Positions 966 to 63,191 of a stretch of DNA of 64,000 nucleotides are shown here, piece after piece (the stretch's first letter is position 1; the number at the start of each line of letters is the position of its first letter). The notes beneath the pieces were generated by a model that worked only from the letters and a program-made list of their open reading frames with translations, had not been told where the DNA came from and did not search any database. Where the stretch lies: positions 22,339 through 86,338 of the forward strand of contig JADFXH010000009.1 in the NCBI GenBank assembly GCA_015233675.1, read 5' to 3'. The stretch comes from Candidatus Omnitrophota bacterium. GTDB taxonomy: Bacteria > Omnitrophota > Gorgyraeia > Zapsychrales > Fredricksoniimonadaceae. Made by a program: the position numbers and the translations under genes.

Positions 966-2669
966 CAATTTTTTAAGCTCACTGATAAATCCGGGATTAA
1001 CAGCATACTCCAATTCTTTTGCTTTATGTACGTCACTCCACGCTTTATCATATTTTTTTAACTGATAATAAATTTGGGCCCGATTATAATAAGCAATTGA
1101 ATCATCCGGATCTATTTTAATAGCTTTGTTGTAATCTAATAAAGCTAAGGCAAAGTCCCCTTTTATCTTGTAGACATATCCGCGGTTATTATAAATTTCT
1201 GCAATATTCGGATTTATATCAATGATTTTGCTATTAATTAAAATGGCTTGAGCAAAATTGCCTTGATAGAAATAAAAATTGCTCAATATATTATAAATTT
1301 GTAAATATTGCGGGTCTATCTCAATGGCTTTATTATAGTCTACTAGAGCCTGCGCAAAGTTACCTGCAGAGGAGTACGCGCTGGCACGATTGCAATACGG
1401 CCTTGCTTTATGAGGAGATTTTTGGACGACATCATTCCATAAAGCAATTTCGTCTTTCCAAATTTTATTCCTTTGATAAGTCAGCACAGCATTACATCCT
1501 ATTATCACCGTCAGAACGATAACCATCGCTTTAATGCTATTCTTCCCCCAAAGATAGTACCCTCCGCTGACTAAGAATATGCTATAACCCACCAATGGTA
1601 AATATAACCGGTGTTCAAGAATGATGTCTCCCATCGCCCAAAAACTCGATTCAGGTATAGTTAGAGTCAAGAAAAACCAAAAAATGGAAAAAGAAAGCAG
1701 TCTATATCTTAAGAATAGTCGCTTAGCCCAATAAAAAATAGCTGTTAAAAATAAAAGACTGATCAATACAGGCAATTGAAAAATATTCTTAAAAACAGGA
1801 TAATCATAATCAAGGTTCTGGTTGATCGGAATGAATACCAGTCTCATATAGGTGACCATGGTCCTGAATTGGGTCAAGAAATAATGCATAGGGGTGATGA
1901 CACCTCCATGCGCCCTTAAATCACCATGCATGCTTTGAAAAACTTGTGACTTGATAAATAAGAATGTGACGGGAACAATAAATATGGTAAGCAAAAAAGG
2001 AGCAAGACATCTCCAGTTAAGCCTGTCTTTAGTGTTTAGAAAACTACACTCATATAGCAGGATTATCAAGGGTAGCGTTACAGTATTCTCCTTTGTGAAC
2101 ATGGCCACAACTGCAGTTATCAGTGCGGCCGGGTAATAAAATCTCCCAAGTTGTGAATTATATCCCTCAGCCTGCAATAGTCTTGATTTAACATAAAGGC
2201 ATAAGGATGCCAAATAAAACATGGCAGCCATTGAAGCGGCCCTCTGCCAAATATACGTCACTGCTTCGGTCTGGAGAGGGTGGCTTACAAATACCAGACC
2301 TGCAAACAGAGCAATGAGATTAGCATGCCGGATAATTTTATCCTCTTTCATGGCAGGAGTAGAAAGAGTCAAAAGGGTCAGCCACCAAACTAAAATGGCC
2401 GTAATTATATGAACCGCCAAGTTAAACAGGTGGTATCCAAAAACATTAAGGCCGTTAAAGTGATAGTTAAAAGCCAGAGAAAGGAAAACAAAAAAACGGC
2501 CATGAAAATAATGCCAGATCTTTTGCAAATCATGAACGTTTCTTATTGCAGAATTATAGACTATAAATATTTTATCATCGAACTGAAACAAGCAATGAAA
2601 AGTGTTGGAATAAACAACAATTCCCAGACAAAAGATAAGCAGAATTGAAAGCAGATAACACGGCCTCAA
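924..2669 (-). CDS. TMTC/PMT-like GT-C membrane protein with C-terminal TPR domain (tandem paralog 1)
   Basis: 581 aa. A polytopic N-terminal ~400 aa carries an FQFDD motif in the first loop (acidic GT-C-type loop). The C-terminus has TPR repeats (AYYNRAQIYYQLKKYDKAW). The last ~14 codons read into a short hairpin repeat. Confidence 0.6.
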   Translation of the reverse strand: MRPCYLLSILLIFCLGIVVYSNTFHCLFQFDDKIFIVYNSAIRNVHDLQKIWHYFHGRFFVFLSLAFNYHFNGLNVFGYHLFNLAVHIITAILVWWLTLLTLSTPAMKEDKIIRHANLIALFAGLVFVSHPLQTEAVTYIWQRAASMAAMFYLASLCLYVKSRLLQAEGYNSQLGRFYYPAALITAVVAMFTKENTVTLPLIILLYECSFLNTKDRLNWRCLAPFLLTIFIVPVTFLFIKSQVFQSMHGDLRAHGGVITPMHYFLTQFRTMVTYMRLVFIPINQNLDYDYPVFKNIFQLPVLISLLFLTAIFYWAKRLFLRYRLLSFSIFWFFLTLTIPESSFWAMGDIILEHRLYLPLVGYSIFLVSGGYYLWGKNSIKAMVIVLTVIIGCNAVLTYQRNKIWKDEIALWNDVVQKSPHKARPYCNRASAYSSAGNFAQALVDYNKAIEIDPQYLQIYNILSNFYFYQGNFAQAILINSKIIDINPNIAEIYNNRGYVYKIKGDFALALLDYNKAIKIDPDDSIAYYNRAQIYYQLKKYDKAWSDVHKAKELEYAVNPGFISELKKLRESHHQRFPLSLE

Positions 2670-2692
2670 AATGCCCCCCCAATGGTTTGCTT

Positions 2693-4528: not shown

Positions 4529-4534
4529 GAAGTT

Positions 4535-5254
4535 CTATTTTATGCCCAGCACATCCTGCATATCAAACAGACCTTTTTTCTTTTTAGAAAGGAATTTCGC
4601 CGCGACCAGAGCGCCTGATGCAAAAATATCGCGGGTCTTGGCATGGTGATGGATGGAAATCAAATCTACCGGGCTTTCAAAAGTGATAGTATGATCGCCG
4701 ATAACCTCCCCCTCACGGATGGAGGCAATATCTTTGACCTTTATTTTAGAAAATGTTTCGGCAATTTCAGCCATGGTCTTGGCAGTCCCTGAAGGAGCGT
4801 CCTTTTTATGCACATGATGTGTTTCACTTAAAGTAATGGCATAATCTTTTCCGGTAATTTGCGCCGTTTGACGGATAAGGCCAAAGACCAGATTGACCCC
4901 CACCGACATATTAGAAGAAAAAACAATGGCAACTTTAGAAGATACTTTTTTGATTTGAGCGATCTGGGCCTTAGTAAAACCTGTAGTGCCGATGACCATG
5001 CTGACGCCGTATTTCTGGCAGGATTTCAGATGACCGAGAGTTGCTTCAGGGGTCGTAAATTCAATGAGCACATCACTCCCCTTTAATGCGGCATCTTCAA
5101 AATTGACCGGGATATTGTAAGATAACAGAGGCACATCCGGCCTGTTTTTGTTTTCTAAAAGGGCGGATATTTTAAAGACTTTATCCTGAAGCGCCAAAGC
5201 CGTAATACGCTGGCCCATCCTGCCCTGACAGCCCGAAACCGCAAGTTTGATCAT
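4535..5254 (-). CDS. dapB: 4-hydroxy-tetrahydrodipicolinate reductase
   Basis: 239 aa. N-terminal GCQGRMG Rossmann motif and the ETHHVHKKDAPSGTA signature. Confidence 0.9.
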   Translation of the reverse strand: MIKLAVSGCQGRMGQRITALALQDKVFKISALLENKNRPDVPLLSYNIPVNFEDAALKGSDVLIEFTTPEATLGHLKSCQKYGVSMVIGTTGFTKAQIAQIKKVSSKVAIVFSSNMSVGVNLVFGLIRQTAQITGKDYAITLSETHHVHKKDAPSGTAKTMAEIAETFSKIKVKDIASIREGEVIGDHTITFESPVDLISIHHHAKTRDIFASGALVAAKFLSKKKKGLFDMQDVLGIK

Positions 5255-5287
5255 CGAAATCCCTCCGTAAATAATTCATTCATTAGA

Positions 5288-5553
5288 GCATGCATTATAA
5301 GGACTAAATTTGTTCTTTGAAGCGACTGTAATTAAGTACATGAGTATGGATGGACAGGTATTATCAATACGGCACATTAAGGAATTTTTCGCCAAATGTC
5401 TGCGAGGATTTACGACAAAAATGTTCCAAATGAAGAGAAACTTTAGAACATTTTTGTTGTAAACCGAAGCAGACGGCGAAAATATTCCGTGCCGAATTGA
5501 TAATACCTGTCCATCCATCACGCTACAAATTGCACGAATGAAAAGAATAAATT
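5288..5553. repeat. composite: type II-like arms flanking type I copy A
   Basis: Left arm GCATGCATTATAAGGACTAAATTTGTTCTTTGAAGCGACTGT (5288-5329) is homologous to the arms of the 62701-62940 palindrome. Right arm GCACGAATGAAAAGAATAAATT (5532-5553) is partly complementary to it. Confidence 0.7.
5346..5518 (-). repeat. type I long-hairpin repeat, copy A (basal variant 1, apical variant 1)
   Basis: 173-nt imperfect palindrome ATGGATGGACAGGTATTA...TAATACCTGTCCATCCAT centred on the loop CAAATGAAGAGAAACTTTA. Lies between dapA and dapB. Confidence 0.9.
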
Positions 5554-6441: not shown

Positions 6442-7261
6442 AAAAATATTCTCCTTTAGCGATCAGCTTCGCTGAGCCCTTAAGCCACACATTATCTATA
6501 TTGTAGCCTTCATCAAAATCAAAGGTGATCTCCAGAATTTCTTTGCTCGCCGTCAATACCTTCATGAAAGCACCCTTTTGCTTTTTAATATTAGGATTAG
6601 CATGGAAATAAGCGATCAATGCCGAGGCCACAGCCCCGGTCCCGCAAGCCAATGTTTCTGCCTCCACCCCTCGCTCAAAAGTGCGCACAGCCACCATGCC
6701 CTCACGGGCACGCTCAACAAAATCAACATTGGTGCCGCGCGGCGCAAACCGAGGGTGATTGCGGACCAAAGCACCCAAGCTATTGGCATCCACATCCTGT
6801 AAACCGTCGACGAAAATCACTGTATGAGGGACACCTGTGTCGATATAATGAACTTCCAATTTCTTATGGGCCACGGTTATATTCAAATTCGGCCTGTAGT
6901 CTTTAGGGTTAGATAAACGCACACGGACCATTTCACCCTGGGCTTCAGCTAAAATCTCGCCGGCTAAGGTCTCAATGCCGAAAGAAGCTTTAGCCGGTTT
7001 TAAATTAGCCATGATATACGCGGCCATGCAACGGGCCCCGTTACCGCACATCTCTGCCTCTGAACCGTCAGCATTAATAATACGCATGCGATAGTCTGAT
7101 TGCGTAGATTTATCAAAAACCAATACTCCGTCAGCGCCGATACCGCTTTGCCGCGCGCAAACGGCTTTGCTGAATTTAGCGTAATCTAAATCCTGGCGAG
7201 CCTCAATGACAATAAAATCATTGCCTGCACCAGCCATTTTTACAAAAGGAATGCTTACCAT
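6434..7261 (-). CDS. dapF: diaminopimelate epimerase
   Basis: 275 aa. GAGNDF plus the two catalytic Cys contexts MCGNGARC and ACGTGAVA. Overlaps dapA by 8 nt. Confidence 0.92.
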   Translation of the reverse strand: MVSIPFVKMAGAGNDFIVIEARQDLDYAKFSKAVCARQSGIGADGVLVFDKSTQSDYRMRIINADGSEAEMCGNGARCMAAYIMANLKPAKASFGIETLAGEILAEAQGEMVRVRLSNPKDYRPNLNITVAHKKLEVHYIDTGVPHTVIFVDGLQDVDANSLGALVRNHPRFAPRGTNVDFVERAREGMVAVRTFERGVEAETLACGTGAVASALIAYFHANPNIKKQKGAFMKVLTASKEILEITFDFDEGYNIDNVWLKGSAKLIAKGEYFYV

Positions 7262-8505
7262 GTCACGATCTTCTCCCCACGCATCAAATCTTTAAAAGTT
7301 TCGCGGTCCTTAATGATCTTAAATTTGTCGCCCTTCACCATGATTTCCCCAACCCGCGGACGCATATTGTAATTGCTGGACATCACATAACCGTAGGCGC
7401 CGGCACTCATAACGGCCAGCAAGTCATTTTTCTTGACCTTGGGCAAAAGGCGGTCATGGGCAAAAAAATCTCCGCTTTCGCAAATAGGGCCCACCACATC
7501 AAATTTTTGCCTGGCACCTTTATTTTGCGCCACACAAACGATCTCGTGATACGCATCATAAAGCATCGGCCTAATCAAGTCATTCATGCCGCCGTCCACG
7601 ATCACAAATTTCTTCAGTCCGTTGTCCTTGACGTAAAGGATCTTGGTCACAAATATACCGGCATTACCGACAATAAAACGCCCAGGCTCCATAATGATCT
7701 TTAAGCCTGTCTTCTCTAAAATAGGAATAACTTTATCAGCATACTGCTGTGCGGTTTGCGGAATTTCATTCTTATAAATAATCCCCAATCCCCCGCCAAT
7801 ATCCAAATATTCAATCTTTATCCCCTCAGCGCTCAACTCATCAATGAAAGTAATTACTTTCTTAATAGCTCCGACAAAAGGAACTCCGGAAGTAATTTGA
7901 GAACCGATATGAATGTGCAAGCCGTTGATCTTCACATGACTGTATTTTTTATAGGCCTTGAAAATTTGACGGGAAGTGCCCAAGTCAATGCCGAATTTCT
8001 TTTTTAAGGAGCCGGTATTCGTATACTCATGCGTTGGCGCCGGGACATCAGGATTGATCCTTAACGCCGCCTGAACCTTCCTGTCCATCTTAACGGCAAT
8101 ACGGTTGATTTCCTCTAATTCCGGCTCAGACTCAACATTAAACAATAAAATACCCGTTTCTATGGCAAATGCTATTTCTTCCTCGGTTTTGCCAACAGAT
8201 GCAAACACGATCTTTTTAGGGTCTGCACCGGCAAGTAAAGCCTTTCCCAATTCACCAATAGAAACAATATCAATACCGGCGCCTAAATCTACCAGGCTTT
8301 TGATGACATTCAGATTACCGTTGGATTTCATGGCAAAGCAAATGATGGGATCAAGTTTGGCAAAAGCCTTCTGGATCTTTAAAAAATGATCAGTGAGTGT
8401 CTTATAGCTGTAAAGATAAAAAGGCGTCCCCACACGTTCGGCAATGGAAGACACCTTGACACCCTCACACCAAAGCTGCCCTTCCTTAAATTCAAAATCA
8501 TGCAT
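7255..8505 (-). CDS. lysA: diaminopimelate decarboxylase
   Basis: 416 aa. FAMKSN PLP-lysine region, GGGLGI and CESGD motifs. Overlaps dapF and argH. Confidence 0.92.
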   Translation of the reverse strand: MHDFEFKEGQLWCEGVKVSSIAERVGTPFYLYSYKTLTDHFLKIQKAFAKLDPIICFAMKSNGNLNVIKSLVDLGAGIDIVSIGELGKALLAGADPKKIVFASVGKTEEEIAFAIETGILLFNVESEPELEEINRIAVKMDRKVQAALRINPDVPAPTHEYTNTGSLKKKFGIDLGTSRQIFKAYKKYSHVKINGLHIHIGSQITSGVPFVGAIKKVITFIDELSAEGIKIEYLDIGGGLGIIYKNEIPQTAQQYADKVIPILEKTGLKIIMEPGRFIVGNAGIFVTKILYVKDNGLKKFVIVDGGMNDLIRPMLYDAYHEIVCVAQNKGARQKFDVVGPICESGDFFAHDRLLPKVKKNDLLAVMSAGAYGYVMSSNYNMRPRVGEIMVKGDKFKIIKDRETFKDLMRGEKIVTW

Positions 8506-9874
8506 TTAACTTCTTGCTCCATTGATTTAACTGTTGTGCAACCAAATTTGGGTTCGTCGAACCCAAAGAAGATTTAATTTTAACAGACATTTGCGGATTA
8601 AAAAGTTTTTTTACATCCGCACCAAACAGCAAAGAATATTGTTTCAACTCTCCCAAACTTAACGAAGATAGGGGCCTGCCCTGATCCAAACATTCACGGA
8701 CCATTTTCCCTAAAATGTCATGAGCATCCCGATTAGAGACTCCTTTTTTGACCAAATAATCCATCACATCAACGGTAAAAAAACTTTCATCCAACACCCG
8801 TTGAGCCGCATTGCCTTTTTTGACTTCCATTGAAGCAAAAATTTTACTCAAAACCAAAAGAACATTCTTGGCGGTATCAACACTGTCAAACAACGCCGGT
8901 TTATCTAATTGCAAATCCCGGTTATAGGTCAACGGCAGCCCTTTCAATAAAACATGAATTTGGGCCAGAAGACCTGTAACTTTAGCAGAACTGCCGCGGA
9001 CTAGCTCCAGCACATCCGGGTTTTTCTTGTGCGGCATAATGGAGGAACCTGTACAAAAACTGCTGTCAATATCAACAAGATCGAACTCTTTGGTGGCCCA
9101 CAAAATCAAGTCTTCAGCGACCCGGGAAAGATGTGTTGTGATCATGGCACAATCGCCGATCAACTCAACAATGAAATCCCGGTCAGAAACAACGTCCATG
9201 CTGTTGGCCGCAACCTGGCTAAATCCGAGCAAAGATGCCAAGTAGACACGGTCCGTTTTAAGCGATGTGCCTGATAAAGCACAGGAACCTAACGGCATAA
9301 AATCCGTGCGATTGGCACAATCAAAAAGCCTCGTTTTATCCCTCTCAAGCATCTCGATATAAGCAAGCATATGATGGGACAACAATACAACCTGCGCCGC
9401 CTGCAAATGAGTATATGCCGGGATTATGACATCTTTATTTTTATTGGCAAATTCCAGAATCTCTTTTTGTAAATAGGTAATGGCTGCCACAAGCTTAGCA
9501 ATTTCATCCCGGCAATAAAGCTTCATGTCCAAAACAACCTGATCATTGCGAGAACGGGCTGTATGCAGTTTATCTGCGGGCTTACCGATAAAAAATTTAA
9601 GACGGTTTTGAATATCCGTATGAATGTCCTCAGCCTTTGGGTCGAATTTGAATTTATCCGTTTCAATTTGCAATAGGATCTTCTTTAGCCCTGCAACAAT
9701 TTTGGCAGAGTCACCCTTTGGAATAATCCCCTGCTTTGACAACATCCGGGCATGGGCTATCGATCCAATGACATCATATTTAGCCAAACGATGGTCATAG
9801 CTAATGCTGAAGGTAAATTGATCAGCCAGCCAATCAGACTTCTTATTAAAACGCCCACCCCAGAGTTTTGACAT
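8498..9874 (-). CDS. argH: argininosuccinate lyase
   Basis: 458 aa. MSKLWGGRF N-terminus and the GSSIMPHKKNP fumarate-lyase signature. Confidence 0.93.
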   Translation of the reverse strand: MSKLWGGRFNKKSDWLADQFTFSISYDHRLAKYDVIGSIAHARMLSKQGIIPKGDSAKIVAGLKKILLQIETDKFKFDPKAEDIHTDIQNRLKFFIGKPADKLHTARSRNDQVVLDMKLYCRDEIAKLVAAITYLQKEILEFANKNKDVIIPAYTHLQAAQVVLLSHHMLAYIEMLERDKTRLFDCANRTDFMPLGSCALSGTSLKTDRVYLASLLGFSQVAANSMDVVSDRDFIVELIGDCAMITTHLSRVAEDLILWATKEFDLVDIDSSFCTGSSIMPHKKNPDVLELVRGSSAKVTGLLAQIHVLLKGLPLTYNRDLQLDKPALFDSVDTAKNVLLVLSKIFASMEVKKGNAAQRVLDESFFTVDVMDYLVKKGVSNRDAHDILGKMVRECLDQGRPLSSLSLGELKQYSLLFGADVKKLFNPQMSVKIKSSLGSTNPNLVAQQLNQWSKKLNA

Positions 9875-9888
9875 AGATGCTCCCTAGT

Positions 9889-11052
9889 TTAATACGGCAT
9901 ACCCCAAAGCCGGATAAAGCCTTCGGAAAGTTTGGGATCGAATATGTCTTTATCGCCGTAGGTCGCAAGCTCCTCTTTATAACGTGAAAACCGGGATTTG
10001 CGCCCCGCCACCTGACAGCTTCCTTTAAACAGTTTCAGCTTCACAACCCCGCTGACACGCTCCTGGGTCTTGTTAATAAACGCGTCTAATTGGATCTTGA
10101 GCGGAGTCTCCCATAATCCGTAGTACGTCAACTCGGCATAGCGGGGAGATATCAATTCCTTATAATGCAGGGTCTCACGATCAAGGACCAGGGCTTCGAG
10201 TTCTTTGTGCGCTGTCATTAAAACAGTTCCTGCAGGATTTTCATAAATCTCGCGGGATTTAATGCCTACCAAACGGTTTTCCACCATATCCACACGCCCC
10301 ACCCCATTGCGCCCCCCAATCTCATTGAGCTTAATGATCAACTCAACGGGGCCGTACGCTTTGCCATTCACTTTAAGGGGATTCCCTTTGACAAATTCCA
10401 CCTCGACATATTCCGGACGATCAGGGCATTTAAGCGGATTTTTGGTCATCGCATAGATTTCTTCCGGCGGCTCAACCCAGGGATCTTCCAAAACACCGCA
10501 CTCAATGGAACGGCCGTAAAGATTAATGTCCGTTGAGTACGGACTCTTTTTGGTGACATCAATAGGTATCTTATATTTATGCGCGTATTCAATTTCCTGT
10601 TCGCGGGTTTTAAATTCCCATGTGCGCAAAGGTGCCAATAACTCCAGATGAGGCGCCAATATTTTAGCGGTCACTTCAAAACGCACCTGGTCATTGCCCT
10701 TGCCCGTACAGCCGTGGGCAACAGCCGTTGCTTTTTCTTTTTTTGCCACCGCCACCTGATGCTTGGCAATCAAAGGCCGCGACAAAGCAGTCGCTAAAAA
10801 ATATTTACCTTCATAAACCGCATTAGCCTTGATCGCAGGAAAGACATAATCCTTAACAAATTCCTGCTTTAAATCAAGGATGTAAACCTTGGAAGCGCCT
10901 GTTGCCAGGGCACGCTTTTCGATTGCCTTAAAATCGCTCCCCTGCCCCACATCAGCCATAAAAGCAATGACCTCATAGTCCTTGTCTTTCAACCAACGGA
11001 TCAGGCAGCTGGTGTCTAAACCGCCAGAATAAGCTAAAATAACTTTCTTCAT
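9889..11052 (-). CDS. argG: argininosuccinate synthase
   Basis: 387 aa. AYSGGLDTS ATP-binding motif and GCTGKGNDQVRFE. Confidence 0.93.
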   Translation of the reverse strand: MKKVILAYSGGLDTSCLIRWLKDKDYEVIAFMADVGQGSDFKAIEKRALATGASKVYILDLKQEFVKDYVFPAIKANAVYEGKYFLATALSRPLIAKHQVAVAKKEKATAVAHGCTGKGNDQVRFEVTAKILAPHLELLAPLRTWEFKTREQEIEYAHKYKIPIDVTKKSPYSTDINLYGRSIECGVLEDPWVEPPEEIYAMTKNPLKCPDRPEYVEVEFVKGNPLKVNGKAYGPVELIIKLNEIGGRNGVGRVDMVENRLVGIKSREIYENPAGTVLMTAHKELEALVLDRETLHYKELISPRYAELTYYGLWETPLKIQLDAFINKTQERVSGVVKLKLFKGSCQVAGRKSRFSRYKEELATYGDKDIFDPKLSEGFIRLWGMPY

Positions 11053-11057
11053 AATAT

Positions 11058-11112
11058 CCCCTTCCTTAAAATTCCATTACCTTTCCATTGATTAGGTCGG
11101 GCCAACGCCCTT
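11058..11112 (-). repeat. ~56-nt repeat forming the argG 5' leader and Shine-Dalgarno region
   Basis: Minus-strand AAGGGCGTTGGCCCGACCTAATCAATGGAAAGGTAATGGAATTTTAAGGAAGGG, followed by GATATT and the ATG. A second copy lies at 12328-12383. Confidence 0.85.
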
Positions 11113-11128: not shown

Positions 11129-11377
11129 TGTCAAAATTCTTGCAGATTATGCATGAGAAGAGATATTATTTGCTCAACGGGATATTTTCGCCGTTGGCGT
11201 CGGTTTACAGCAAAAATGTTCTAAAGTCTCTCTTCATTTGGAACATTTTTCCTGTAAATCCTAGCCAACTTTTGGCGAAAAATCCCTGAATGTTTCGCAA
11301 ACAATATCCCTTCTCATGCATAACATACAATCCTTGCCCAGGCTGATACTGATATTCAGTGTCAGCCGTCCATGTAT
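11129..11377. repeat. TGTCAAAA-ended composite element carrying type I copy B (right end truncated or diverged)
   Basis: The left end TGTCAAAATTCTTGCAG and the internal sequence are colinear with 53304-53691, apart from the 112-nt insert. Homology ends near 11377 and there is no right TTTTGACA. Confidence 0.65.
11147..11323 (+). repeat. type I long-hairpin repeat, copy B (basal variant 3, apical variant 1)
   Basis: 177-nt palindrome TTATGCATGAGAAG...CTTCTCATGCATAA, sharing the middle stem and apical loop with the other copies. Confidence 0.9.
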
Positions 11378-11407
11378 TCATGTGTCGGGCCGACACAAGG
11401 TCAGTCC

Positions 11408-12322
11408 CTACGCTAACAACTTTAAAAGAACTGCCTTTTGCGCGTGCAAACGGTTTTCAGCCTGATCAAAAACTACCGAGTGTTCTCCGTCAATGATATC
11501 CGCTGTCACTTCCAGACCGCGATGTGCGGGCAGGCAATGCATGAAAATATAATCCTTATGGGCCGCTTTCACCAGATCCTTATTGACCTGATAACCCTTA
11601 AATTCTTTGATGCGTTTGGCTTTTTCTTTTTCCTGCCCCATACTGACCCATACGTCAGAATATATAATATCTGCTCCCTTAACGGCTTGCTGGGGATTTC
11701 GCCCTAATTCAATAGTACACCTATTTTTTTTGGCGCTATCTTTTGCATCTTGCACAATTTCATAGTTAGGATCATACCCTTTTGGGCCGGCAAAACGCAC
11801 ATTAATCCCCACTTTAGCACAAGCAATCATCAACGAATGAAAAACATTATTCCCATCACCAACATAAGCCAAGGTCAAGCCCTTGAATGAACCCATCTTC
11901 TCACGGATAGTCTGAATATCTGCCAGAGCTTGGCAGGGATGATACAGGTCGCACAAGGCATTAATGACCGGCACATCTGCGTGCTGGGCCAGTTCAAAAA
12001 TATCTTTACTGTCAAAAACCCTCGCAACAATACAATGCACATAACGCGACAAGGTCTTGGCCACATCATAAGTAGACTCACGCTTGCCCAGATTGATCTC
12101 TTCAGGCCCCAGATAAAGGCAATGCCCGCCTAATTCATAAACGCCCACTTCAAAAGAAACACGTGTGCGGTTAGATGGTTTTTGGAACACCAACGCGACT
12201 GTTTTGCCTTTCAAATCAGCACGCAATTTTCCTTTTTGTTTCTTTAACAAGCCTGCCGAATCAATCAAAGACACTATTTCGGCGCCGGAATAATCAGACA
12301 ATTTTATCAAATCACGTTTCAT
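11408..12322 (-). CDS. argF: ornithine carbamoyltransferase
   Basis: 304 aa. SNRTRVSFE carbamoyl-phosphate motif and HCLPAHRG. Confidence 0.92.
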   Translation of the reverse strand: MKRDLIKLSDYSGAEIVSLIDSAGLLKKQKGKLRADLKGKTVALVFQKPSNRTRVSFEVGVYELGGHCLYLGPEEINLGKRESTYDVAKTLSRYVHCIVARVFDSKDIFELAQHADVPVINALCDLYHPCQALADIQTIREKMGSFKGLTLAYVGDGNNVFHSLMIACAKVGINVRFAGPKGYDPNYEIVQDAKDSAKKNRCTIELGRNPQQAVKGADIIYSDVWVSMGQEKEKAKRIKEFKGYQVNKDLVKAAHKDYIFMHCLPAHRGLEVTADIIDGEHSVVFDQAENRLHAQKAVLLKLLA

Positions 12323-13580
12323 ACTTTCCCTTCCTTAAAATTCCACAAGCCTTGCCATTGATTAGGTCGGGCCAACGCCCTTTCGTCACAGCTCCCTTTT
12401 TCAAAACCGCCTCAATTGCCCCATCCAAAATATGAATAGCTTTATTAATTTGACGCCGGGTCACATTAAGTGCCGGCATAATACGTAATACATTGTCCTG
12501 CGTACAATTGATAATTAATCCCCTGCTAAAACATTCCTTAAAAATTGCGGCACCTTCAATTGTCAACTCCACTCCGATCATAAGCCCCAAGCCGCGCACT
12601 TCTTTAATAACGTCATATTTAGACTTCAATTCGTTTAACTTCATGACCAAATAGGGGCCCTGAACTTTAACCTTTTTCATTATTTTTTCAGCATAAATAG
12701 CTTTAATTACTCCCAAAGCTGCCTTACATACCAAGGGACTGCCGGCAAAGGTCGATCCGTGCATGCCCGGCTTAAAGATGTCAGCCAGCTCTTTTTTTAC
12801 AATCATAGCCCCTATGGGCAAGCCGCCGCCTAAGGCCTTGGCCAGGCACATCACATCCGGTGTTATGCCGTAATGCTTAAAGGCGAAGATCTCACCAGTG
12901 CGGGCCATGCCCGACTGAACTTCATCAATGATCAGCAGAATTTTTTGCTCATCGCAGATTTGGCGCAGAGCCTTCACATATTCCTTAGTAGCAACATTAA
13001 TCCCGCCTTCACCCTGAATAAGCTCAATCATAATGGCCGCTGTTTGATCATTGACCGCTGCTTTTAAAGCGCCGATGTCATTAAAAGGCACATGTTTGAA
13101 TCCGGGCACAAGAGGAGAAAACCCTTTTTGGTGCTTCTCCTGCCCTGTTGCCGTCAAGGCGCCCATGGTTCGGCCATGAAAAGCATTAATGGTCGTGATG
13201 ATCTCAAATTTCTTGCCCTCGCCGTACTTCCTGGCAAATTTAATGGCCGCCTCCACAGATTCCGTGCCGCTGTTACAGAAAAAAATCTTGCCCTCAAAAG
13301 AAATACGGATCAATTCTTTAGCTAATTTGGCCTGGTGAGGATTATAAAAATTATTCGGAATATGGATTAATTTCCCGATCTGTTCACGCACCGCACCCAT
13401 GACCTTAGGATGGCAATGCCCTAAGTTGCTTACACCCCAGCCAGGAAAAAAATCTAAATATTTCTTACCTTGAAAATCCGTCAGCTGTGACCCTTTGCCT
13501 TTAACAAAGATCGCAGGCATGCGGGTATACGTCAGAAGGATATGGTCGTTATATTCTTTAAAAATTTCGTCAGCTTTCAT
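12312..13580 (-). CDS. argD: acetylornithine aminotransferase (class III); the last ~23 codons are repeat-derived
   Basis: 422 aa. NSGTESVE, DEVQSGMARTG and the PLP lysine region. The C-terminal KGRWPDLINGKACGILRKGKYET is encoded by the 56-nt repeat also found upstream of argG. Confidence 0.88.
   Translation of the reverse strand: MKADEIFKEYNDHILLTYTRMPAIFVKGKGSQLTDFQGKKYLDFFPGWGVSNLGHCHPKVMGAVREQIGKLIHIPNNFYNPHQAKLAKELIRISFEGKIFFCNSGTESVEAAIKFARKYGEGKKFEIITTINAFHGRTMGALTATGQEKHQKGFSPLVPGFKHVPFNDIGALKAAVNDQTAAIMIELIQGEGGINVATKEYVKALRQICDEQKILLIIDEVQSGMARTGEIFAFKHYGITPDVMCLAKALGGGLPIGAMIVKKELADIFKPGMHGSTFAGSPLVCKAALGVIKAIYAEKIMKKVKVQGPYLVMKLNELKSKYDVIKEVRGLGLMIGVELTIEGAAIFKECFSRGLIINCTQDNVLRIMPALNVTRRQINKAIHILDGAIEAVLKKGAVTKGRWPDLINGKACGILRKGKYET
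12328..12383 (-). repeat. ~56-nt repeat forming the argF leader/SD and the argD C-terminal codons
   Basis: Minus-strand AAAGGGCGTTGGCCCGACCTAATCAATGGCAAGGCTTGTGGAATTTTAAGGAAGGG, followed by AAAGT and the ATG. Colinear with 11058-11112. Confidence 0.85.
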
Positions 13581-20643: not shown

Positions 20644-20683
20644 AAATTTTATAAAGAATAAATTTATTCTTTTCGTTCGCGCA

Positions 20684-20855
20684 TTGAGATGAACAGCTAT
20701 TATATATTCGGCACGGGAATTTTTCGCCGTCTGCTACGGTTTACAGCTTGGCTGCTATCGCGATAAGGCATTCGCGGCAGCCAAGCTGTAAATCCTTGCA
20801 GACTTTTGGCAAAAAATTCCTATCGTGCCTCACACATAATAGCTGTTCATCTCAA
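20684..20855 (+). repeat. type I long-hairpin repeat, copy C (basal variant 2, apical variant 2)
   Basis: TTGAGATGAACAGCTATTA...TAATAGCTGTTCATCTCAA. The apex is CTTGGCTGCTATCGCGATAAGGCATTCGCGGCAGCCAAG. Confidence 0.9.
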
Positions 20856-20916
20856 GCGCATGCGTCATTATAAGAGATAAATTCTTTAAAACGAAACTAT
20901 GATTTAGTACATTAGT

Positions 20917-21089
20917 ATGGATGGACAGGTATTATTAATTCGGCACATTCAGGAATTTTTTCCCAAAAGTCTGCGAGGAGTTACAACAAAAATGTTCCAA
21001 ATGAAGAGAATCTTTAGAACATTTTTGTTGTAAACCGAAGCAGACGGAAAAAATATTCCGTGCCGAATTAATAATACCTGTCCATCCAT
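20917..21089 (-). repeat. type I long-hairpin repeat, copy A' (basal variant 1, apical variant 1)
   Basis: Near-identical to copy A over 173 nt. Sits 61 nt from copy C in the asd / phosphatase intergenic gap. Confidence 0.9.
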
Positions 21090-21139
21090 CACGCTACAAA
21101 TTGCGCTAAGAATAAATTGTTTTGAAATGCCCTTAGACT

Positions 21140-34166: not shown

Positions 34167-35427
34167 CACACCTGTCCGGTAAAAAATAAGGAAACCACGT
34201 CCATCGTGTTAGAATAAGGTTACGCGAATAACCAAACCACGAGGAGGGTTCCCAATGGCTCATTCTAACACGCTTTTCCACGAACTGCTAAAACTTATCC
34301 CGAGACATCAATTTGATACAATCGTCAAAAATCATGGCGGTAACCGTTACGTTAAGCATTTTAATTGCTGGCAACAGTTCGCCACACTGCTTTATGCCTA
34401 AGCCGCAGACAAAGATTCTTTACGCGAAATTGAGCAAGGCATGCAAATCAATGATCCCCGGCTGTATCACTTGGGCCTGACACGCATTAAACGCTCAACT
34501 TTATCAGATGCTAATCGCAATCGCCCCAGCGAAATTTTCCAAGCATTGTTTTATAAATTAGTTGAACGCTGTCAGACATTGACACCCAAGCACAAATTTA
34601 AATTTAAGAATCCTCTTTATACTTGGGACGCCACGCTCATCAGCCTATGCCTGTCTTTGTTCCCCTGGTCCAAGTTTGGTCAGACCAAGGGAGCTCTTAA
34701 ACTTCACGTTCAGATTAACCATAGCGGGCATATTCCTGACTTTATAGTTGCAACGCCAGCATTCAATCATGAAAGCATGGTTGTTAAAAGGTCGTTTCAA
34801 ATTAAACCGGACAGCATTTATTGCTTTGACCGCGGCTATTGGGACTATTCGTTGTTCCGTCGGATACATAACGCCAAGGCCTTCTTCGTGACACGCACCA
34901 AGGAAACCATGAAATACACGGTTACCGGACAGCATAGCGAAACATCAAAAAAAGGCATACTCTCTGATGAGATTATTCAACTGGTTAACGATCCATATCA
35001 AAAAGAATTACGGCTAGTGCGGTACTATGATGAGGAGTCCGGAGAAATATTTGAATTCTTGACCAATAATCTTCATTTGGCGGCTACAACCATTGGGAAA
35101 ATTTATCAGGCAAGGTGGCAAATCGAAGCTTTTTTCAAGTGGGTTAAACAAAACTTGAAGATCAAAACATTCTTGGGGACGAATCAAAATGCGGTTTTAT
35201 CCCAAATCTGGGTGGCGATGTGCTACTTCTTGCTTTTGGCCTATATAAAAAATTCCAGACCAAGTTCCAAAAATCACTCTTTTATCTGCATAAACTGGTC
35301 CAGGATGCACTGTTTTCACCTTTAACCATCGTTGACTTGCTTACAGCCTCGCAAAGAAAGCTTGAGCGATTTAAGACCAACGAATTCCAGTTTGCATTCC
35401 TCTAGAAAGTTTTACCGGACAGCTGTG
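34167..35427 (+). mobile_element. IS4-family insertion sequence, decayed
   Basis: 18-19 bp terminal inverted repeats: CACACCTGTCCGGTAAAA (34167-34184) and its near-complement GTTTTACCGGACAGCTGTG (35409-35427). They bracket a DDE transposase reading frame. No clear target-site duplication seen. Confidence 0.8.
34255..35405 (+). pseudogene. IS4-family (DUF4372 + DDE) transposase, inactivated
   Basis: Starts at the ATG at 34255 (GAGGAGGG upstream) with MAHSNTLFHELLKLIPRHQFD. There is an in-frame TAA at 34399-34401, and the frame resumes as the 34441..35325 ORF. A frameshift near the A-run around 35250 moves the conserved C-terminus into the 35220..35405 frame. Confidence 0.8.
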
Positions 35428-35461: not shown

Positions 35462-35547
35462 ATCGTCAGTTCTCTCAGAACACTAAACCATACACTTGCT
35501 TTCAATCTCTATAACATGAACGGGCGGACACAAGGTCCGCACCTACA

Positions 35548-36564
35548 CTACCCGCCGATTTGGAACATTTCAATCTTGGGCGATGTTTTAGAAGTATTGC
35601 GGACCGAGGAACGGATTTCAGAATAATGGTCTTCTCGTTTGATCCATAACTCACGTATCAAATGGCTTAAAAACTCATCTGTAGCGCCACCTCTTAAATG
35701 CGCGCCTAAATCCATACCATGCGTGGCAAAAAGGCAAGGGTACATTTTGCCGTCGGCTGATAAACGCAAACGGCTGCAGGTGCCGCAAAAGGCCTTTGTA
35801 ACTGAAGAAATAAACCCAATTTCACCTTTGCCCTCTTTAAAACGATAAGTCTCTGAAGTGCTCCTGTTTTGCGTGATTTGAAGACGTTGTAAAGGAAACT
35901 GAGCGTCAATCAAAGAAATGACCTCGCTGGATGCAACCACTTGGGCATTTTCCCAATGATTTTGATTGCCCACATCCATGTATTCGATAAAGCGTACGGT
36001 ATGAGGGGTGCCGTAAAAATATTTGACCAGATCCAGGATCGTATGGTCATTGATCCCACGCTGAACAACACAATTGATTTTGATAGAATCAAACCCTGCA
36101 TGCTCTGCGGCACAAATGCCATGTAGCACATCTTTTACCGAGCCTTGTTGGCCGCTCATTTGACGGAATATAGCCTCATCTAAAGTGTCAAGGCTGACCG
36201 TTAAACGGCCAAGCTGGGCCTCTTTCAGGCGAGGAGCCCATTCTTTCAGCAAAAAGCCATTGGTGGTCAATGCTAAATCATCGACTCCTTTGATCGCTGA
36301 CAATTGGCGGATAAGCTCATCAATGTCCGGCCTTAACAGAGGCTCTCCGCCGGTCAAACGCAATTTAGTGACGCCTAGGCTGACAAAAATCCGCACCAGA
36401 CGCACAATTTCCTCAAAACTTAACCATTCTTTTTTATCAAGAAATTGATAAGCCTGATGAAATCCTTCCGAAGGCATGCAATAGGGACAGCGACAATTGC
36501 ATCGGTCAATCAAAGAAATCCGCAAATCACGCAAAGGTCTATTTAGCGCATCTGTAATTGACAT
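35548..36564 (-). CDS. moaA: GTP 3',8-cyclase (radical SAM)
   Basis: CNCRCPYCMP CxxxCxxC motif and GGEPLLR. The likely start is MSITDALN (36564); the track start at 36627 overlaps sufU. Confidence 0.9.
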   Translation of the reverse strand: MSITDALNRPLRDLRISLIDRCNCRCPYCMPSEGFHQAYQFLDKKEWLSFEEIVRLVRIFVSLGVTKLRLTGGEPLLRPDIDELIRQLSAIKGVDDLALTTNGFLLKEWAPRLKEAQLGRLTVSLDTLDEAIFRQMSGQQGSVKDVLHGICAAEHAGFDSIKINCVVQRGINDHTILDLVKYFYGTPHTVRFIEYMDVGNQNHWENAQVVASSEVISLIDAQFPLQRLQITQNRSTSETYRFKEGKGEIGFISSVTKAFCGTCSRLRLSADGKMYPCLFATHGMDLGAHLRGGATDEFLSHLIRELWIKREDHYSEIRSSVRNTSKTSPKIEMFQIGG

Positions 36565-41980: not shown

Positions 41981-42029
41981 TGTCAAAATTCTTGCAGGCT
42001 CGTCCATTGCACTCATATAACTTTTGATA
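41981..42029. repeat. TGTCAAAA-ended element, minimal 49-nt form
   Basis: TGTCAAAATTCTTGCAGGCTCGTCCATTGCACTCATATAACTTTTGATA lies between the sufB start and the Rrf2 stop, overlapping the last Rrf2 codons. Confidence 0.7.
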
Positions 42030-42492
42030 CTACCTCGACTCCCTGCATAAAATGCTTAGTCCGGATTTGCCGTTCACCTTGATTACGCGAAGAAATCAAA
42101 TCACGCACATTGATGGTTTTAAACAGTTCTGAAAGCCGTTCATTCAAATTCAGCATGGGCGAAATGACATTGCATTGGGAGGTCATATCGCAATTCGAGT
42201 AATTGCCATGGAAGCAATTAACGATCTTGATAGGCCCCTCAATGATCTGAGTTAAATCAAAAAGCGTGATTTTCGAAAGGTCCTTGAGTATCTGGTAGCC
42301 GCCATGGGCCCCTTGCTCAGCGCGAACGATCTCATTTTGAGCCATGATCTGTAAAACGCGCGAAGTTGGGTCAAAAGGCGTATGGTATATATCACAAATT
42401 TCCTTGGCTGAGCTCAACTGGCCCGGCGCTTTACTGCTCATATGCCGCAAGGAGATCAGGGCATATTCTAATTTACGATTAATTTTAAACAT
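42013..42492 (-). CDS. Rrf2-family transcriptional regulator (IscR/SufR-role candidate)
   Basis: 159 aa. N-terminal wHTH (RKLEYALISLRHMS) and three clustered Cys (NCFHGNYSNCDMTSQC) compatible with an Fe-S ligand set. First gene of the suf cluster. The last ~5 codons lie in a 49-nt TGTCAAAA-type element. Confidence 0.8.
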   Translation of the reverse strand: MFKINRKLEYALISLRHMSSKAPGQLSSAKEICDIYHTPFDPTSRVLQIMAQNEIVRAEQGAHGGYQILKDLSKITLFDLTQIIEGPIKIVNCFHGNYSNCDMTSQCNVISPMLNLNERLSELFKTINVRDLISSRNQGERQIRTKHFMQGVEVVSKVI

Positions 42493-42518: not shown

Positions 42519-42714
42519 TGTCAAAATTCCGCTTCTAGATGACGCGGGTCCTGTCCTTAGTCTCAACGTTAAGGTGCTCCTCAGACGGGGGCAACCTTAA
42601 CAGCAGCACCGACGGTGATATTCCCTATACCGCCCACTTGAGCAGGTGCCGTGCGCGCCTTAACATTGAAACTAAGGACACCCGCTAATCCATGTTTTCA
42701 TAAAACTTTTGACA
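42519..42714. repeat. TGTCAAAA-ended element with GC-rich structured cargo (196 nt)
   Basis: Ends are TGTCAAAATTCC... and ...AAAACTTTTGACA. The inner long stem GCGGGTCCTGTCCTTAGTCTCAACGTTAAGG (42544-42574) pairs with CCTTAACATTGAAACTAAGGACACCCGC (42658-42685), enclosing a GC-rich ~80-nt core. Confidence 0.75.
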
Positions 42715-46248: not shown

Positions 46249-47292
46249 CTATTTACCCGATGCCGTTTTTAAAGCTTCGATAAAACCAGGGTTAACCGTG
46301 CCCCCTAATTCCTGAGTCTTGCGCACATCAGCCCATGCCTTATCGTATTGTTTTAACTGATAATAACCAACAGCCCGGTTATAGTAAGCCTTTGTATAAT
46401 TTGGATTTAAATCCAGAGCCTTAGTCAAATCAGCAATAGCTTCGTTAGGTTTAATCTCTCGAAGATAAGAAAGAGCACGGATCATATAGTTTTTAGCATC
46501 TTTTGAGTTTATAGCAATAAGTTGGGTAAAATCAGAAATGGCCTGAATAAAATTTTGCTGATCATAATAGATGCTCCCACGGATATAATAGGCAACGCTA
46601 TCTTTACTGTTGAGCTCAATAGCTTTGTTATAGTCTGCAATGGCGGCAGATAAATCTCTTTTTTTGATATAGACAAGACCTCGCTTCCTGTAAAGAATCC
46701 CCTCTTTAGGAAAAAATTCAATAGCTTTATTATAATCCATCAAAGCAGCATCGAAATTGCCTTGTTTTACATAGGCCTTACCGCGGTTAACCAAGGCTAT
46801 GACATCCTTAGGATAAACTTCAACAGCTTTCGAATAGTCAGAAATAGCATCAGTGATTTTGCCTTGGTTATAGTAAATAATGCCGCGATTGTTGTAGGCA
46901 GCTGCGAATTTTGGGTTTATTTTTATAGCTTCGTTATAATCTGACAAAGCAGCTGTTAAATTTCCTTGTTTAACATAGAATTGGCCGCGATCAGTATAGG
47001 CCTTAAAATCTTTTGGATCTATTTCAATGGCTTGTGTAGAATCAGAGATGGCATCAGTTAAGTTGCCTAATTTGGCTAGAGCAAGAGCACGGTTGGCATA
47101 TCCTGAAGCATTTTTGTGGTCTGCTTCAATCGCCTTGGTAAATTCCGCGACAGCTTCCTTGAAATTGCCCTGTTTCATGTAGGTCAATCCTAAATCATTA
47201 GGCCCCTTGACCGTCTGTGCATATACAGATGAAATAATTAAAAAAAGCATGGCCGCTAAAGTCAGTTTTTTTAATCCAAAACAATATTCCAT
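46249..47292 (-). CDS. secreted/periplasmic TPR-repeat protein
   Basis: 347 aa. N-terminal signal-like segment (LTLAAMLFLIISSVYAQ), then ~9-10 TPR units. The C-terminal cap is shared with the two TMTC-like proteins. Confidence 0.75.
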   Translation of the reverse strand: MEYCFGLKKLTLAAMLFLIISSVYAQTVKGPNDLGLTYMKQGNFKEAVAEFTKAIEADHKNASGYANRALALAKLGNLTDAISDSTQAIEIDPKDFKAYTDRGQFYVKQGNLTAALSDYNEAIKINPKFAAAYNNRGIIYYNQGKITDAISDYSKAVEVYPKDVIALVNRGKAYVKQGNFDAALMDYNKAIEFFPKEGILYRKRGLVYIKKRDLSAAIADYNKAIELNSKDSVAYYIRGSIYYDQQNFIQAISDFTQLIAINSKDAKNYMIRALSYLREIKPNEAIADLTKALDLNPNYTKAYYNRAVGYYQLKQYDKAWADVRKTQELGGTVNPGFIEALKTASGK

Positions 47293-53273: not shown

Positions 53274-53322
53274 CACAGGACATCCCTGCCGGGCGCATGG
53301 TCGTGTCAGAAATTCTTGCAGG

Positions 53323-53499
53323 TTATGCATAAAAAGAGATATTATTTGCTCAACGGGACATTTTCGCCGTTGGCGTCGGTTTACAGCAAAAATGTTCTAA
53401 AGTTTCTCTTCATTTGGAACATTTTTGCTGTAAATCCTAGCCAACTTTTGACGAAAAATCCCTGAATGTTTCGCAAACAATATCTCTTTTCATGCATAA
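53323..53499 (+). repeat. type I long-hairpin repeat, copy B'
   Basis: Near-identical to copy B (TTATGCATAAAAAG...CTTTTCATGCATAA). Confidence 0.9.
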
Positions 53500-53531
53500 C
53501 ACCCAATCCTTGCTCAGGCTGATACTGATAT

Positions 53532-53643
53532 GTTGTTCTGACGTATAAAAATCTGAAACCTTGCATTCGGCTGGTCTTGACGCGTGACCCCGAATGTGGG
53601 AAACCACCCTACCAGCATGAACAAAGATTTTAGCCAGAACAAC
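53532..53643. repeat. 112-nt nested hairpin insert with 9-nt terminal inverted repeats
   Basis: GTTGTTCTG...CAGAACAAC, flanked by ATAT on both sides. The paralogous site at 11351-11359 (GATATTCAG) is uninterrupted. Confidence 0.8.
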
Positions 53644-53704
53644 ATATCAGTGTCAGCCGTCCATGTATCACGCGCTCATAAACTTTTGACACTGCCGGGC
53701 GCAC

Positions 53705-62660: not shown

Positions 62661-62700
62661 TCCTCATGAGCACACGGACATAGAAGCATGCAACTCTAGT

Positions 62701-62940
62701 GCATGCATTATAAGGAATGATTTTGTTCTTTTCGCTCCTGAAAGTCATTTTCTTAACGCCAAAAATTCTTATGACGACTCGGTGGTCAAACAACTCGCTC
62801 TTTCTTTCTCTGGAAATAAAGAGCTCAAACATGTTTGACCATTTAAGCCTGAGGGCTTAAATGCCCTCGTCATCATAAGTTTTTTGGCTAAAAATGACAC
62901 AGTCGCTTCAAAGAACAAATTCATTCCTTATAATGCACGC
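62701..62940. repeat. type II ~240-nt Y-shaped palindrome
   Basis: The basal stem GCATGCATTATAAGGAATGA (62701-62720) pairs with TCATTCCTTATAATGCACGC (62921-62940). Two apical hairpins are present: TGGTCAAACA...TGTTTGACCA (62783-62841) and TTTAAGCC-TGAG-GGCTTAAA (62842-62861). Confidence 0.85.
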
Positions 62941-62982
62941 ATCATTAGATGAATTGTCTTTTTAGAAACACATTTAGGATGG

Positions 62983-63158
62983 CTGAACAGCTATTCTTAT
63001 TATGTATTCGGCACATTCTGGAATTTTTTCCCAAATGTCTGCAAGGCTTTACAGCTTGGGTGCCGCATATGCCTTATCGCGATAGCATCCAAGCTGTAAA
63101 CCGTAGCAGACGGGAAAAATATTCCCGTGCCGAATACATAATAAGAATAGCTGTTCAG
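62983..63158 (-). repeat. type I long-hairpin repeat, copy D (basal variant 2, apical variant 2, inverted relative to C)
   Basis: CTGAACAGCTATTCTTATTATGTATTCGGCAC...GTGCCGAATACATAATAAGAATAGCTGTTCAG. The apex is the reverse complement of copy C's apex. Confidence 0.9.
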
Positions 63159-63191
63159 ACTTCACGCGTTCCTGTAAGGAGAATAATTCAT

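Follow-up and report, generated by a model that had tools for sequence, protein, structure and literature searches.

The 64,000-nt stretch of DNA analysed here (hereafter the window) comes from Candidatus Omnitrophota bacterium (assembly GCA_015233675.1, contig JADFXH010000009.1, positions 22,339 to 86,338) and carries a long hairpin at 62983-63158, between a trypsin-like peptidase gene and an STT3-like gene. This hairpin, named copy D, is bounded exactly by CTGAACAG...CTGTTCAG and is one of exactly six window copies of an imperfect palindrome of ~175-190 nt, as detected with a covariance model built from 48 copies of the family. The element is oriented, its stems covary, and its base and tip reassort among copies. 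We consider it moderately probable that D belongs to an Omnitrophota-specific, non-autonomous family of mobile palindromic repeats resembling in design the REPINs, which are hairpin-forming doublets of repetitive extragenic palindromic (REP) sequences.

The inverted-repeat arms of D span 62978-63014 and 63127-63163 and are 95% complementary. Folded as RNA, the + strand reached -109.2 kcal/mol (z = -17.1 against shuffles) and the - strand -105 kcal/mol. Read on the + strand from the foot inward, the basal stem pairs 62983..63014 (CTGAACAGCTATTCTTATTATGTATTCGGCAC) with 63127..63158 (GTGCCGAATACATAATAAGAATAGCTGTTCAG) and is followed on the 5' arm by a 5-nt bulge at 63015..63019 (ATTCT; family consensus A-W-T-M-A). 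The outer mid-stem then joins 63020..63032 (GGAATTTTTTCCC) to 63112..63126 (GGGAAAAATATTCCC), and a 4-nt bulge, AAAT, occupies 63033..63036. The 5' arm of the inner core (63037..63054) consists of GTCTGC, an internal loop AA, GG, a bulged C and TTTACAG, and its 3' arm (63094..63111) of CTGTAAA, CC, an internal loop GTA and GCAGAC. These enclose the apex at 63055..63093, CTTGGGTGC...GCATCCAAG, in which one stem position is a G.T pair and a perfect palindrome, TATCGCGATA, lies at 63075-63084.

The basal stem of D also holds a 6-nt insertion that is mirrored on the two arms, TCTTAT at 62996-63001 and ATAAGA at 63141-63146. A copy in another genome (locus L054, about 6849-7027) has a 6-nt insertion at the same mirrored position with a different sequence, AAATAC/GTATTT. 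Such mirrored insertions suggest that one arm was templated from the other, for example by quasipalindrome template switching.

The covariance model bounded D at 62982..63159 (+ strand) and scored each of the six copies at 158-191 bits on its better strand, against 70-83 bits on the opposite one. Copy A (5343..5521, +) lies between dapB and dapA within remnants of a second palindrome family, and A' (20914..21092, +), 92% identical to A, lies downstream of asd. Copy B (11146..11324, -) separates argG from argF, and B' (53322..53500, -), 95% identical to B, adjoins an aconitase-family gene. Copy C (20682..20857, -) shares with A' the interval between a metallophosphoesterase gene and asd.

Family architecture, orientation and covariation

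We collected about 85 copies from about 25 genomes and metagenomes, and all or nearly all were from Omnitrophota. The core pattern TGTAAACCGNNGCNNACGGNNAAAA, run against 185,579 species with one genome each, returned 62 loci. Sixty of these were in metagenome-assembled genomes (MAGs) assigned to Candidatus Omnitrophota or labelled 'uncultured Planctomycetales', and two matches in Bacillota/Clostridiales, in which the left arm was missing, were attributed to chance. Two loci were syntenic with the window at 70-82% identity, one under each label (L042, 'Planctomycetales'; L054, Candidatus Omnitrophota), so that at least the L042 MAG belongs to the window's lineage. A 'Candidatus Omnitrophica' protein was 89% identical to the Asd protein of the window, and nothing in the collection exceeded 91% identity to it. 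For two window proteins, look-ups of the exact sequence found no existing record. None of the viral contigs carried the element core. Omnitrophota is a widespread and largely uncultured phylum, for which the element family is a phylum-specific marker.

When the six window copies were aligned as they stand on the + strand, mean identity was 64% and the gaps were staggered; reverse-complementing B, B' and C raised it to 71% and made the alignment collinear. The element thus has a forward strand, which is + for A, A' and D and - for B, B' and C. This orientation was missed by an earlier, sequence-only reading of the region, which had compared the copies as homologous hairpins with exchanged parts. 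Relative to A, A' and D, the copies B, B' and C are reverse-complemented, so the apex-1 loop of A appears in B and B' as its reverse complement.

Across the family the forward strand has a common layout. From the foot inward there is a basal stem of ~27-30 bp, the 5-nt bulge on the 5' arm, and a stem GGGATTTTTNGCC / GGCNAAAATATCCC whose 3' arm has one additional base. Beyond it come the 4-nt AAAT bulge, again on the 5' arm, a stem GTCTGC / GCAGAC, a purine-rich internal loop GA/GAA (variants AA/GTA and TA/GAC), GG / CC, one bulged base, and a stem TTTACA / TGTAAA that closes on the apex. The element therefore has three tiers: a basal stem that is variable in sequence, a conserved and asymmetric mid-stem, and an apex that is variable in sequence and near-constant in length. 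Apex length was 41-46 nt in 46/58 parsed copies, with outliers of 49-52, 64-66, 81 and 101 nt, and there were at least eight unalignable apex sequence types with a common layout. The family is a clear natural case of a hairpin in which a sequence constraint (middle) is separate from a structure-only constraint (base and tip).

Covariation was extensive. In a 76-pair structure imposed on a 48-sequence alignment, 90.1% of cells were standard pairs, versus only 41-46% when the 3' partner was slid by 1-3 columns. Changes on both sides occurred in 52 of the 76 stem pairs, and the covariation score was 0.437, whereas the slid controls scored no higher than 0.108 and the shuffles 0.142. RNAalifold independently recovered compensatory changes in 32/50 pairs. 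Basal stems intergraded through compensated substitutions and formed a continuum under single-linkage clustering. In six copies that fell outside the strict search pattern, the 'invariant' stems covaried too (TTTGCA/TGCAAA, TTTATGG/CCATAAA, and GG/CC replaced by AA/TT), so the invariance of the 3' arm is partly an artefact of how copies were collected. With base and tip constrained in structure only, lineages would diverge there through compensated changes on both arms. With a covariation signal this strong, the element needs to be masked or modelled in searches for structured RNAs.

The two strands were not equivalent. The covariance model favoured one by about 100 bits, and the forward RNA fold was the more stable in 43/56 copies. 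Unpaired interior bases on the forward strand were 71% purine and 52% A. G.U cells outnumbered A.C cells (113 vs 64), with similar numbers of affected pair positions (37 vs 35), and purine-purine mismatches outnumbered pyrimidine-pyrimidine ones (204 vs 87). The first apex stem alternated between a fully paired form, GCTTGG/CCAAGC, and GCGAGG/CCGAGC with tandem G.A. A count of GNRA terminal loops in minimum free energy structures gave one on each strand and was uninformative. These are the features of an element of which one strand is read in folded form, be it as DNA or as RNA.

The same features raise the possibility of a function at the RNA level, with the element serving either as a structured RNA present in many copies or as a structure that acts in cis in operon transcripts (processing, stability or protein binding), with the core as a protein-binding motif, the stems kept by selection on RNA, and mobility secondary. 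The purine-rich and A-rich unpaired positions, the excess of G.U and of purine-purine mismatches, the alternation of tandem G.A (GCGAG/CGAGC) with paired GCTTG/CAAGC, the GA/GAA or AA/GUA internal loop adjoining GG/CC, the tips C(GAAA)G and C(GTAA)G in several apex types and the strong covariation all speak for it, as does the position of many copies within operons, where they would be co-transcribed. G.T wobbles, G.A mismatches and GNA/GNRA loops are stable in single-stranded DNA too, however. Relative to the element, flanking genes ran in the same direction in 17 cases and in the opposite direction in 25, with 4 convergent and 1 divergent; element orientation is not locked to the direction of transcription, and most copies would be transcribed as the 'wrong' strand. 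Upstream of the hairpin there was no conserved sequence that might act as a promoter travelling with the element, and no Rfam family matched: with Rfam 15, no match to the window reached the gathering thresholds, the best sub-threshold score being 23 bits against a cut-off of 72. Copies also vary in presence and absence at housekeeping junctions of related genomes (see below), which argues against a locus-specific host function. We regard a primarily RNA-level role as unlikely.

Reassortment of base and tip

Two mutually exclusive apices and three basal stems had been described for the six window copies in the sequence-only reading, and all were found. Apex 1 (ACAAAAATGTTC...GAACATTTTTGT) occurred at 5415-5457 and 20986-21028 (A and A'), at 53386-53428 with G for the first A (B'), and at 11210-11252 with that change and a further mismatch in the 3' stem arm (B). 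With one mismatch allowed, its stem ACAAAAATGTTC matched the window eight times where chance predicts 1.1, and these matches formed four inverted pairs, at about 5415, 11210, 20986 and 53386. Apex 2 with its 10-nt palindrome TATCGCGATA was present in the window only in C (20747-20785) and D. The basal stems GGACAGGTATTAT, AACAGCTATT and GAGATATTATTTGC were all present, and none occurred elsewhere in the window. As described, they combine as basal stem 1 with apex 1 in A and A', basal stem 3 with apex 1 in B and B', and basal stem 2 with apex 2 in C and D.

Module exchange proved real, and general across the family. We classified two basal types, X (..AGCTATTATGT..GGCAC) and Y (..GGTGTTGTGGACGAAAC). 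Type X was combined with apex 1a in 9 copies, 1b in 4, 2 in 11 and 3a in 2, and type Y with apex 1a in 7, 2 in 4 and 3a in 2. The identity matrices of bases and apices were only loosely correlated (r = 0.38). In 15 pairs of copies the bases were at least 80% identical and the apices less than 55% identical, and converse pairs with a similar apex on dissimilar bases also existed (e.g. L008 and L031). The full set of combinations requires recombination, as convergence on a 41-nt sequence is not credible. Base and tip reassort among copies, most likely through copies recombining with one another.

Divergence alone, without recombination, is improbable as an account of these combinations. It would make the apex and basal types homologues that diverged by compensated substitution, with the combinations reflecting the ancestry of sub-lineages. 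The apex types are alike in length and layout, the basal stems form a continuum, compensated change is massive, and the mirrored 6-nt indels of D and L054 show that arms co-evolve, all of which would be expected. This account meets the difficulty that two base types and three apex types occur in every one of the six possible combinations, that the 15 discordant pairs have near-identical bases under unalignable apices while converse pairs occur, and that a 41-nt apex more than 90% identical on unrelated bases cannot be convergence. The modules, which the sequence-only reading had described as exchanged cassettes, are not unrelated to one another: all apex types have nearly equal length and a common layout, and the basal stems intergrade through compensated substitutions.

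The internal loop identified where exchange takes place. Copies with apex 1a or 1b had GA/GAA in 24 cases and AA/GTA in 2, versus 0 and 19 in copies with apex 2 (Fisher's test, 9e-11, for copies that are not independent samples); L028, L037 and L077 were exceptions to this linkage. Loop type was unrelated to the base (12 to 13 in X, 6 to 6 in Y). The variant of the outer mid-stem tended to track the base, with GGGAT in 12/13 Y copies. The internal loop thus travels with the apex and not with the base, which places the breakpoints within the conserved mid-stem and makes them variable. An exchange at one defined junction, TTTACAG|CTGTAAA, had been proposed earlier. That junction is present in B, B', C and D and absent from A and A' (TTTACGA / GTTACAA ... 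TTGTAAA), and it fails as the exchange point in that the internal loop, outside this stem, moves with the apex. The exchanged unit extends approximately from the internal loop through GG/CC and the TTTACA stem to the apex, and is larger than the apex previously delimited. Its breakpoints lie in the most invariant stretch, ..CCAAATGTCTGC / GCAGACGG.., a signature expected of homologous recombination or gene conversion between dispersed copies. We infer this mechanism from the incompatible module combinations; at the level of those combinations, dispersed copies are shown to exchange their inner segment.

Insertion, nesting and probable mobility

Comparison with related genomes revealed copies as insertions between housekeeping genes. 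The asd and phosphoesterase genes were contiguous or overlapped by 4 nt in four relatives (L063, L065, L067 and L068; Asd 90-91% identical), and at this junction the window has a 496-nt spacer holding C and A'. L042 lacked copy B and had a copy of its own between the orthologues of the window genes 8498..9874 and 9889..11052, which in the window are 14 nt apart. L065 had a copy between fabF and leuB, a site that was empty in L063, L067, L068 and the window.

We detected no target-site duplication. The lengths of flanking direct repeats equalled those of a permuted control (58 copies, with ends set by the extent of the hairpin), the filled site in L042 showed none, and no conserved flanking target was seen around copies. 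A 10-mer flanking the asd insertion, AAGAATAAAT, was considered as a target-site duplication and rejected; it belongs to the arms of a 'type-2' palindrome family and also stands beside A. It occurs five times in the window (5543, 20654, 20662(rc), 21108 and 21142(rc)), and four of these occurrences surround the asd/phosphoesterase insertion, one overlapping the last asd codons. The window Asd ends in KNK before the stop, versus KNL in relatives, so the 3' end of asd in the window may have been reshaped by the insertion. A common intergenic region in L002 and L033 proved to hold independent insertions that differ in insertion point, base and apex.

Hairpins were repeatedly found within hairpins, and nesting seems to be a general habit of these genomes. 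L051 carried a whole copy within the apex slot of another, decayed copy. The L049 copy lay inside the loop of a GGCTGATACYGAT hairpin, of a family also present in the window at 11341-11367 and 53517-53658. This third hairpin family (GGCTGATACYGATAT...), the outer hairpin around the L049 copy, has at these two window sites a short form and a form with a 94-nt insert. A and A' are nested inside arms of the type-2 family. The intact copy of that family is a long palindrome at 62697..62941, 40 nt upstream of D (arms 62700-62731 and 62910-62941), whose arms (TGCATGCATTATAAGGAATGATTTTGTTCTTT and complement) enclose a different 178-nt hairpin, and decayed arms lie at 5284-5318 with 5541-5553, around A, and at about 20856-20890, by A'.

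Some copies are altered. L025 and L031-4529, which had looked like insertion sequences (ISs) inserted in an apex, are truncation or deletion derivatives: L031 (about 4505-4600, - strand) joins the basal 5' arm straight to the 3' core arm, and L025 (about 300-430) keeps only the 3' half from the apex loop onward. Eight loci of MAG CAZBJT01 (L003, L005, L007, L016, L023, L046, L053 and L062) have an 81-nt apex with ends TTTTAC...GTAAAA. Many of these copies are at contig ends, which shows the repeat breaking the assembly; several copies of the family lie at contig ends.

These nested arrangements (L051, L049, and A and A' in type-2 arms), together with enlarged apices of 81 and 101 nt, could be taken to mean that apices 1 and 2 are separate miniature hairpins inserted in the core tip and that the core is itself inserted in older basal hairpins. 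We consider such plain nesting very improbable as the source of the modules. No direct repeats were found flanking the apex, although a short one could hide in a palindromic target, and exchange is therefore not reduced to nested MITEs (miniature transposable elements with inverted repeats), the outcome that the sequence-only reading had named as an alternative to its own. Nor did apices stand free. The apex-2 loop alone (GCCGCRWATGCCYTATCGCGATAGC) had 20 matches in the metagenome collection, 20/20 inside the element and on at least four basal types, and in 0.5 Mb of local sequence all 41 matches to apex patterns 1a, 1b, 2 and 3a lay between core arms. Basal stems were never found in the window outside the core context, the internal loop co-varies with apex type and is outside the supposed insert, and near-constant apex length is unexpected for unrelated inserts.

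For the favoured reading, a mobile palindromic repeat that recombines, the parts of the hairpin suggest a scheme. The conserved asymmetric mid-stem, with its two inverted arms, is probably the recognition site for a protein that reads the folded single strand; we infer both this single-strand recognition and non-autonomy. In the flanked tip, a length of 41-46 nt and the capacity to form a hairpin would matter and sequence would not, and the basal stem would lengthen the hairpin outward, with pairing and not sequence under constraint. Copies would insert without target-site duplication into very short spacers between housekeeping genes, and would often land in another hairpin's tip. Compensated divergence would follow from selection for a foldable element, perhaps with help from quasipalindrome template-switch correction. 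Co-resident lineages would swap the inner segment (loop, TTTACA stem and apex; about 65-75 nt) by homologous recombination or gene conversion, for which the invariant stretches CCAAATGTCTGC and GCAGACGG would provide the homology.

Several observations weigh against this scheme. Sequence conservation peaks in the middle of the element and is lowest at the termini, which is unusual for transposons cut at their ends. A role at the RNA level would account just as well for the purine-rich loops and for the tips C(GAAA)G and C(GTAA)G in some apex types. Between near-identical strains, no precise excision or insertion was seen, so that the element ends stay loosely defined. The case for recombination comes from module combinations and not from a swap observed at a fixed locus. 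The best candidate for an apex swap in place, L054 against window copy C at the asd junction, was rejected: the genes of the left flank differ and the L054 copy sits at the A' position, which makes an independent insertion equally likely and leaves orthology not demonstrable. No transposase or recombinase among the genes examined was linked to the element. A tblastn search with approximate IS200/IS608-like lures, a weak test, found no Y1/IS200-like gene in 0.65 Mb of element-bearing DNA, and a weak IS200-like match beside the L043 copy was MiaA. The only IS in the window (34167-35427; IS4/IS5-type, 18-bp terminal inverted repeats (TIRs) CACACCTGTCCGGTAAAA, DDE_Tnp_1 open reading frame (ORF) at 34441..35325) was rejected as a parent, its ends being unrelated and a single 8-mer being common with the basal stem, in the wrong orientation.

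A short ORF upstream of the transposase ORF in this IS suggests a possible split of the reading frame. In L036, L021 and L048, clustered copies have between them genes for a glycosyltransferase, RuvB and a T5orf172-domain protein, and two more genes (L036:4330-5895 and L021:358-882) that matched no Pfam family; no transposase family matched any of these genes.

We also consider a more specific proposal, which we hold to be doubtful. The element could be the substrate of an undescribed hairpin- and strand-specific Omnitrophota recombinase or transposase, or of an RNA-guided or RNA-level system, acting at hairpin tips. Such an enzyme would recognise the mid-stem, insert copies into the apices of other hairpins and swap length-constrained, hypervariable tip cassettes. 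If true, this would be a functionally attC-like system of 'variable terminal structures' outside integrons, and the mobilising enzyme, if found, may represent a new hairpin-tip-targeting activity.

The window contains other repeats. A 65-nt repeat (78% identity) at 11048-11112 and 12318-12382 overlaps the start codons annotated for argG and argF, extending into the upstream spacers, and a 30-nt GC-rich hairpin-like repeat occurs at 11386-11415 and 35521-35550. Three ORFs at 924-4528 and 46249-47292 have a 102-nt (34-codon) repeat period consistent with TPR-type proteins, and two of them are adjacent paralogues with 80-85% identical blocks. An inverted repeat at 42552-42680 (26-nt arms, 88% complementary, with a 77-nt spacer) lies just upstream of a gene for an Rrf2-family regulator (42013..42492) and may be an operator or another repeat family.

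Comparison with known systems

The variable tip had suggested a recombination-site hairpin to the sequence-only reading, and the integron attC site is a model of this kind: a folded single-strand substrate of a tyrosine recombinase, bounding mobile gene cassettes. The element resembles attC in being an imperfect, strand-specific folded hairpin whose extrahelical bases lie on one strand and whose terminal structure varies. It differs in genomic context, conserved boxes, size and orientation pattern. The foot of the hairpin is its least conserved part, with sequences that vary (GATGAACAGC, ATGGATGGAC, ATATGGTTAA and others), and lacks the RYYYAAC/GTTRRRY motif that attC sites carry there in their R''/L''...L'/R' boxes. 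Whereas attC sites form co-oriented arrays around promoterless cassettes beside an intI gene, copies of the element are scattered one by one in either orientation between housekeeping biosynthetic genes such as dapB/dapA, argG/argF and asd/phosphoesterase; ~180 nt exceeds the length range of attC; and no integrase was found among annotated genes near copies. We reject attC membership on conserved boxes, context and size, and consider an integron-type site extremely improbable.

IS200/IS605-derived elements carry separate subterminal hairpins at their two ends, insert 3' of a set tetra- or pentanucleotide and are strand-biased with respect to replication. The lack of a duplication and the strand-specific fold would be compatible with such an origin; on the other side, the element is a single long hairpin, no conserved flanking target was seen, and its orientation shows no bias relative to gene direction (17 to 25). 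MITEs with long TIRs (Correia/NEMIS, ERIC, RUP and Rickettsia palindromic elements) are likewise imperfect palindromes of 100-200 nt in many copies, often co-transcribed with their neighbours and polymorphic in insertion between relatives. These MITEs, however, have conserved termini, target-site duplications (TA for Correia) and usually a recognisable parent IS, whereas the termini of the element are its least conserved part, no duplication is detectable, and the only IS in the window has unrelated ends; a DDE-type MITE would be flanked by a target-site duplication and have TIRs that match an autonomous IS. Quasipalindrome template-switch correction, a replication-associated mutational mechanism known from E. 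coli, would explain simultaneous complementary changes and the mirrored 6-nt indels. As a mutational process acting alone, it would erase the conserved bulges, yet these are retained.

Bacterial interspersed mosaic elements (BIMEs) of E. coli are mosaic combinations of a few palindromic and linker motifs at intergenic sites. The element is mosaic and intergenic as well, but BIMEs are tandem arrays of short REP units and linkers, and the element is one long hairpin of nested tiers.

The closest analogue of the element, as far as its design can be compared, is the REPIN. REPINs are REP doublets that form hairpins and are mobilised by RAYT transposases (Bertels & Rainey 2011, PMC3116915); their conserved units are inverted around a spacer of lower conservation, whose length and hairpin-forming capacity are constrained and which shows compensatory changes (PMC3116915). 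A REP unit is an imperfect palindrome of 20-40 nt with a conserved GTAG or CGTC tetranucleotide at one of its ends, and the cognate RAYT, a Y1 HUH transposase, is encoded in the same genome with repeats on either side of its gene. The element too has two inverted conserved sequences around a less conserved spacer and folds as a whole into a long hairpin, and it is multi-copy, extragenic, present in both orientations, lineage-restricted and long-lived. Its apex corresponds to the REPIN spacer in being mostly 41-46 nt long, in its at least eight sequence types and in its covarying stems. Unlike those of REPINs, its conserved arms are ~40 nt long, are asymmetric (bulges of 5 and 4 nt, plus an internal loop) and are not built of short GTAG- or CGTC-tagged REP palindromes; GTAG occurs only in the AA/GTA loop variant, with GAAG or GACG elsewhere. 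No RAYT was identified by tblastn with approximate lures over the same 0.65 Mb, the best match being MiaA. It also has a further variable basal stem of 27-30 bp outside the arms, which brings it to ~180 nt in total, and its modules reassort. In the literature we found no description of the element, nor of the repeat content of Omnitrophota. It represents a variation on the theme of bacterial palindromic repeats that is undescribed and restricted to one phylum.

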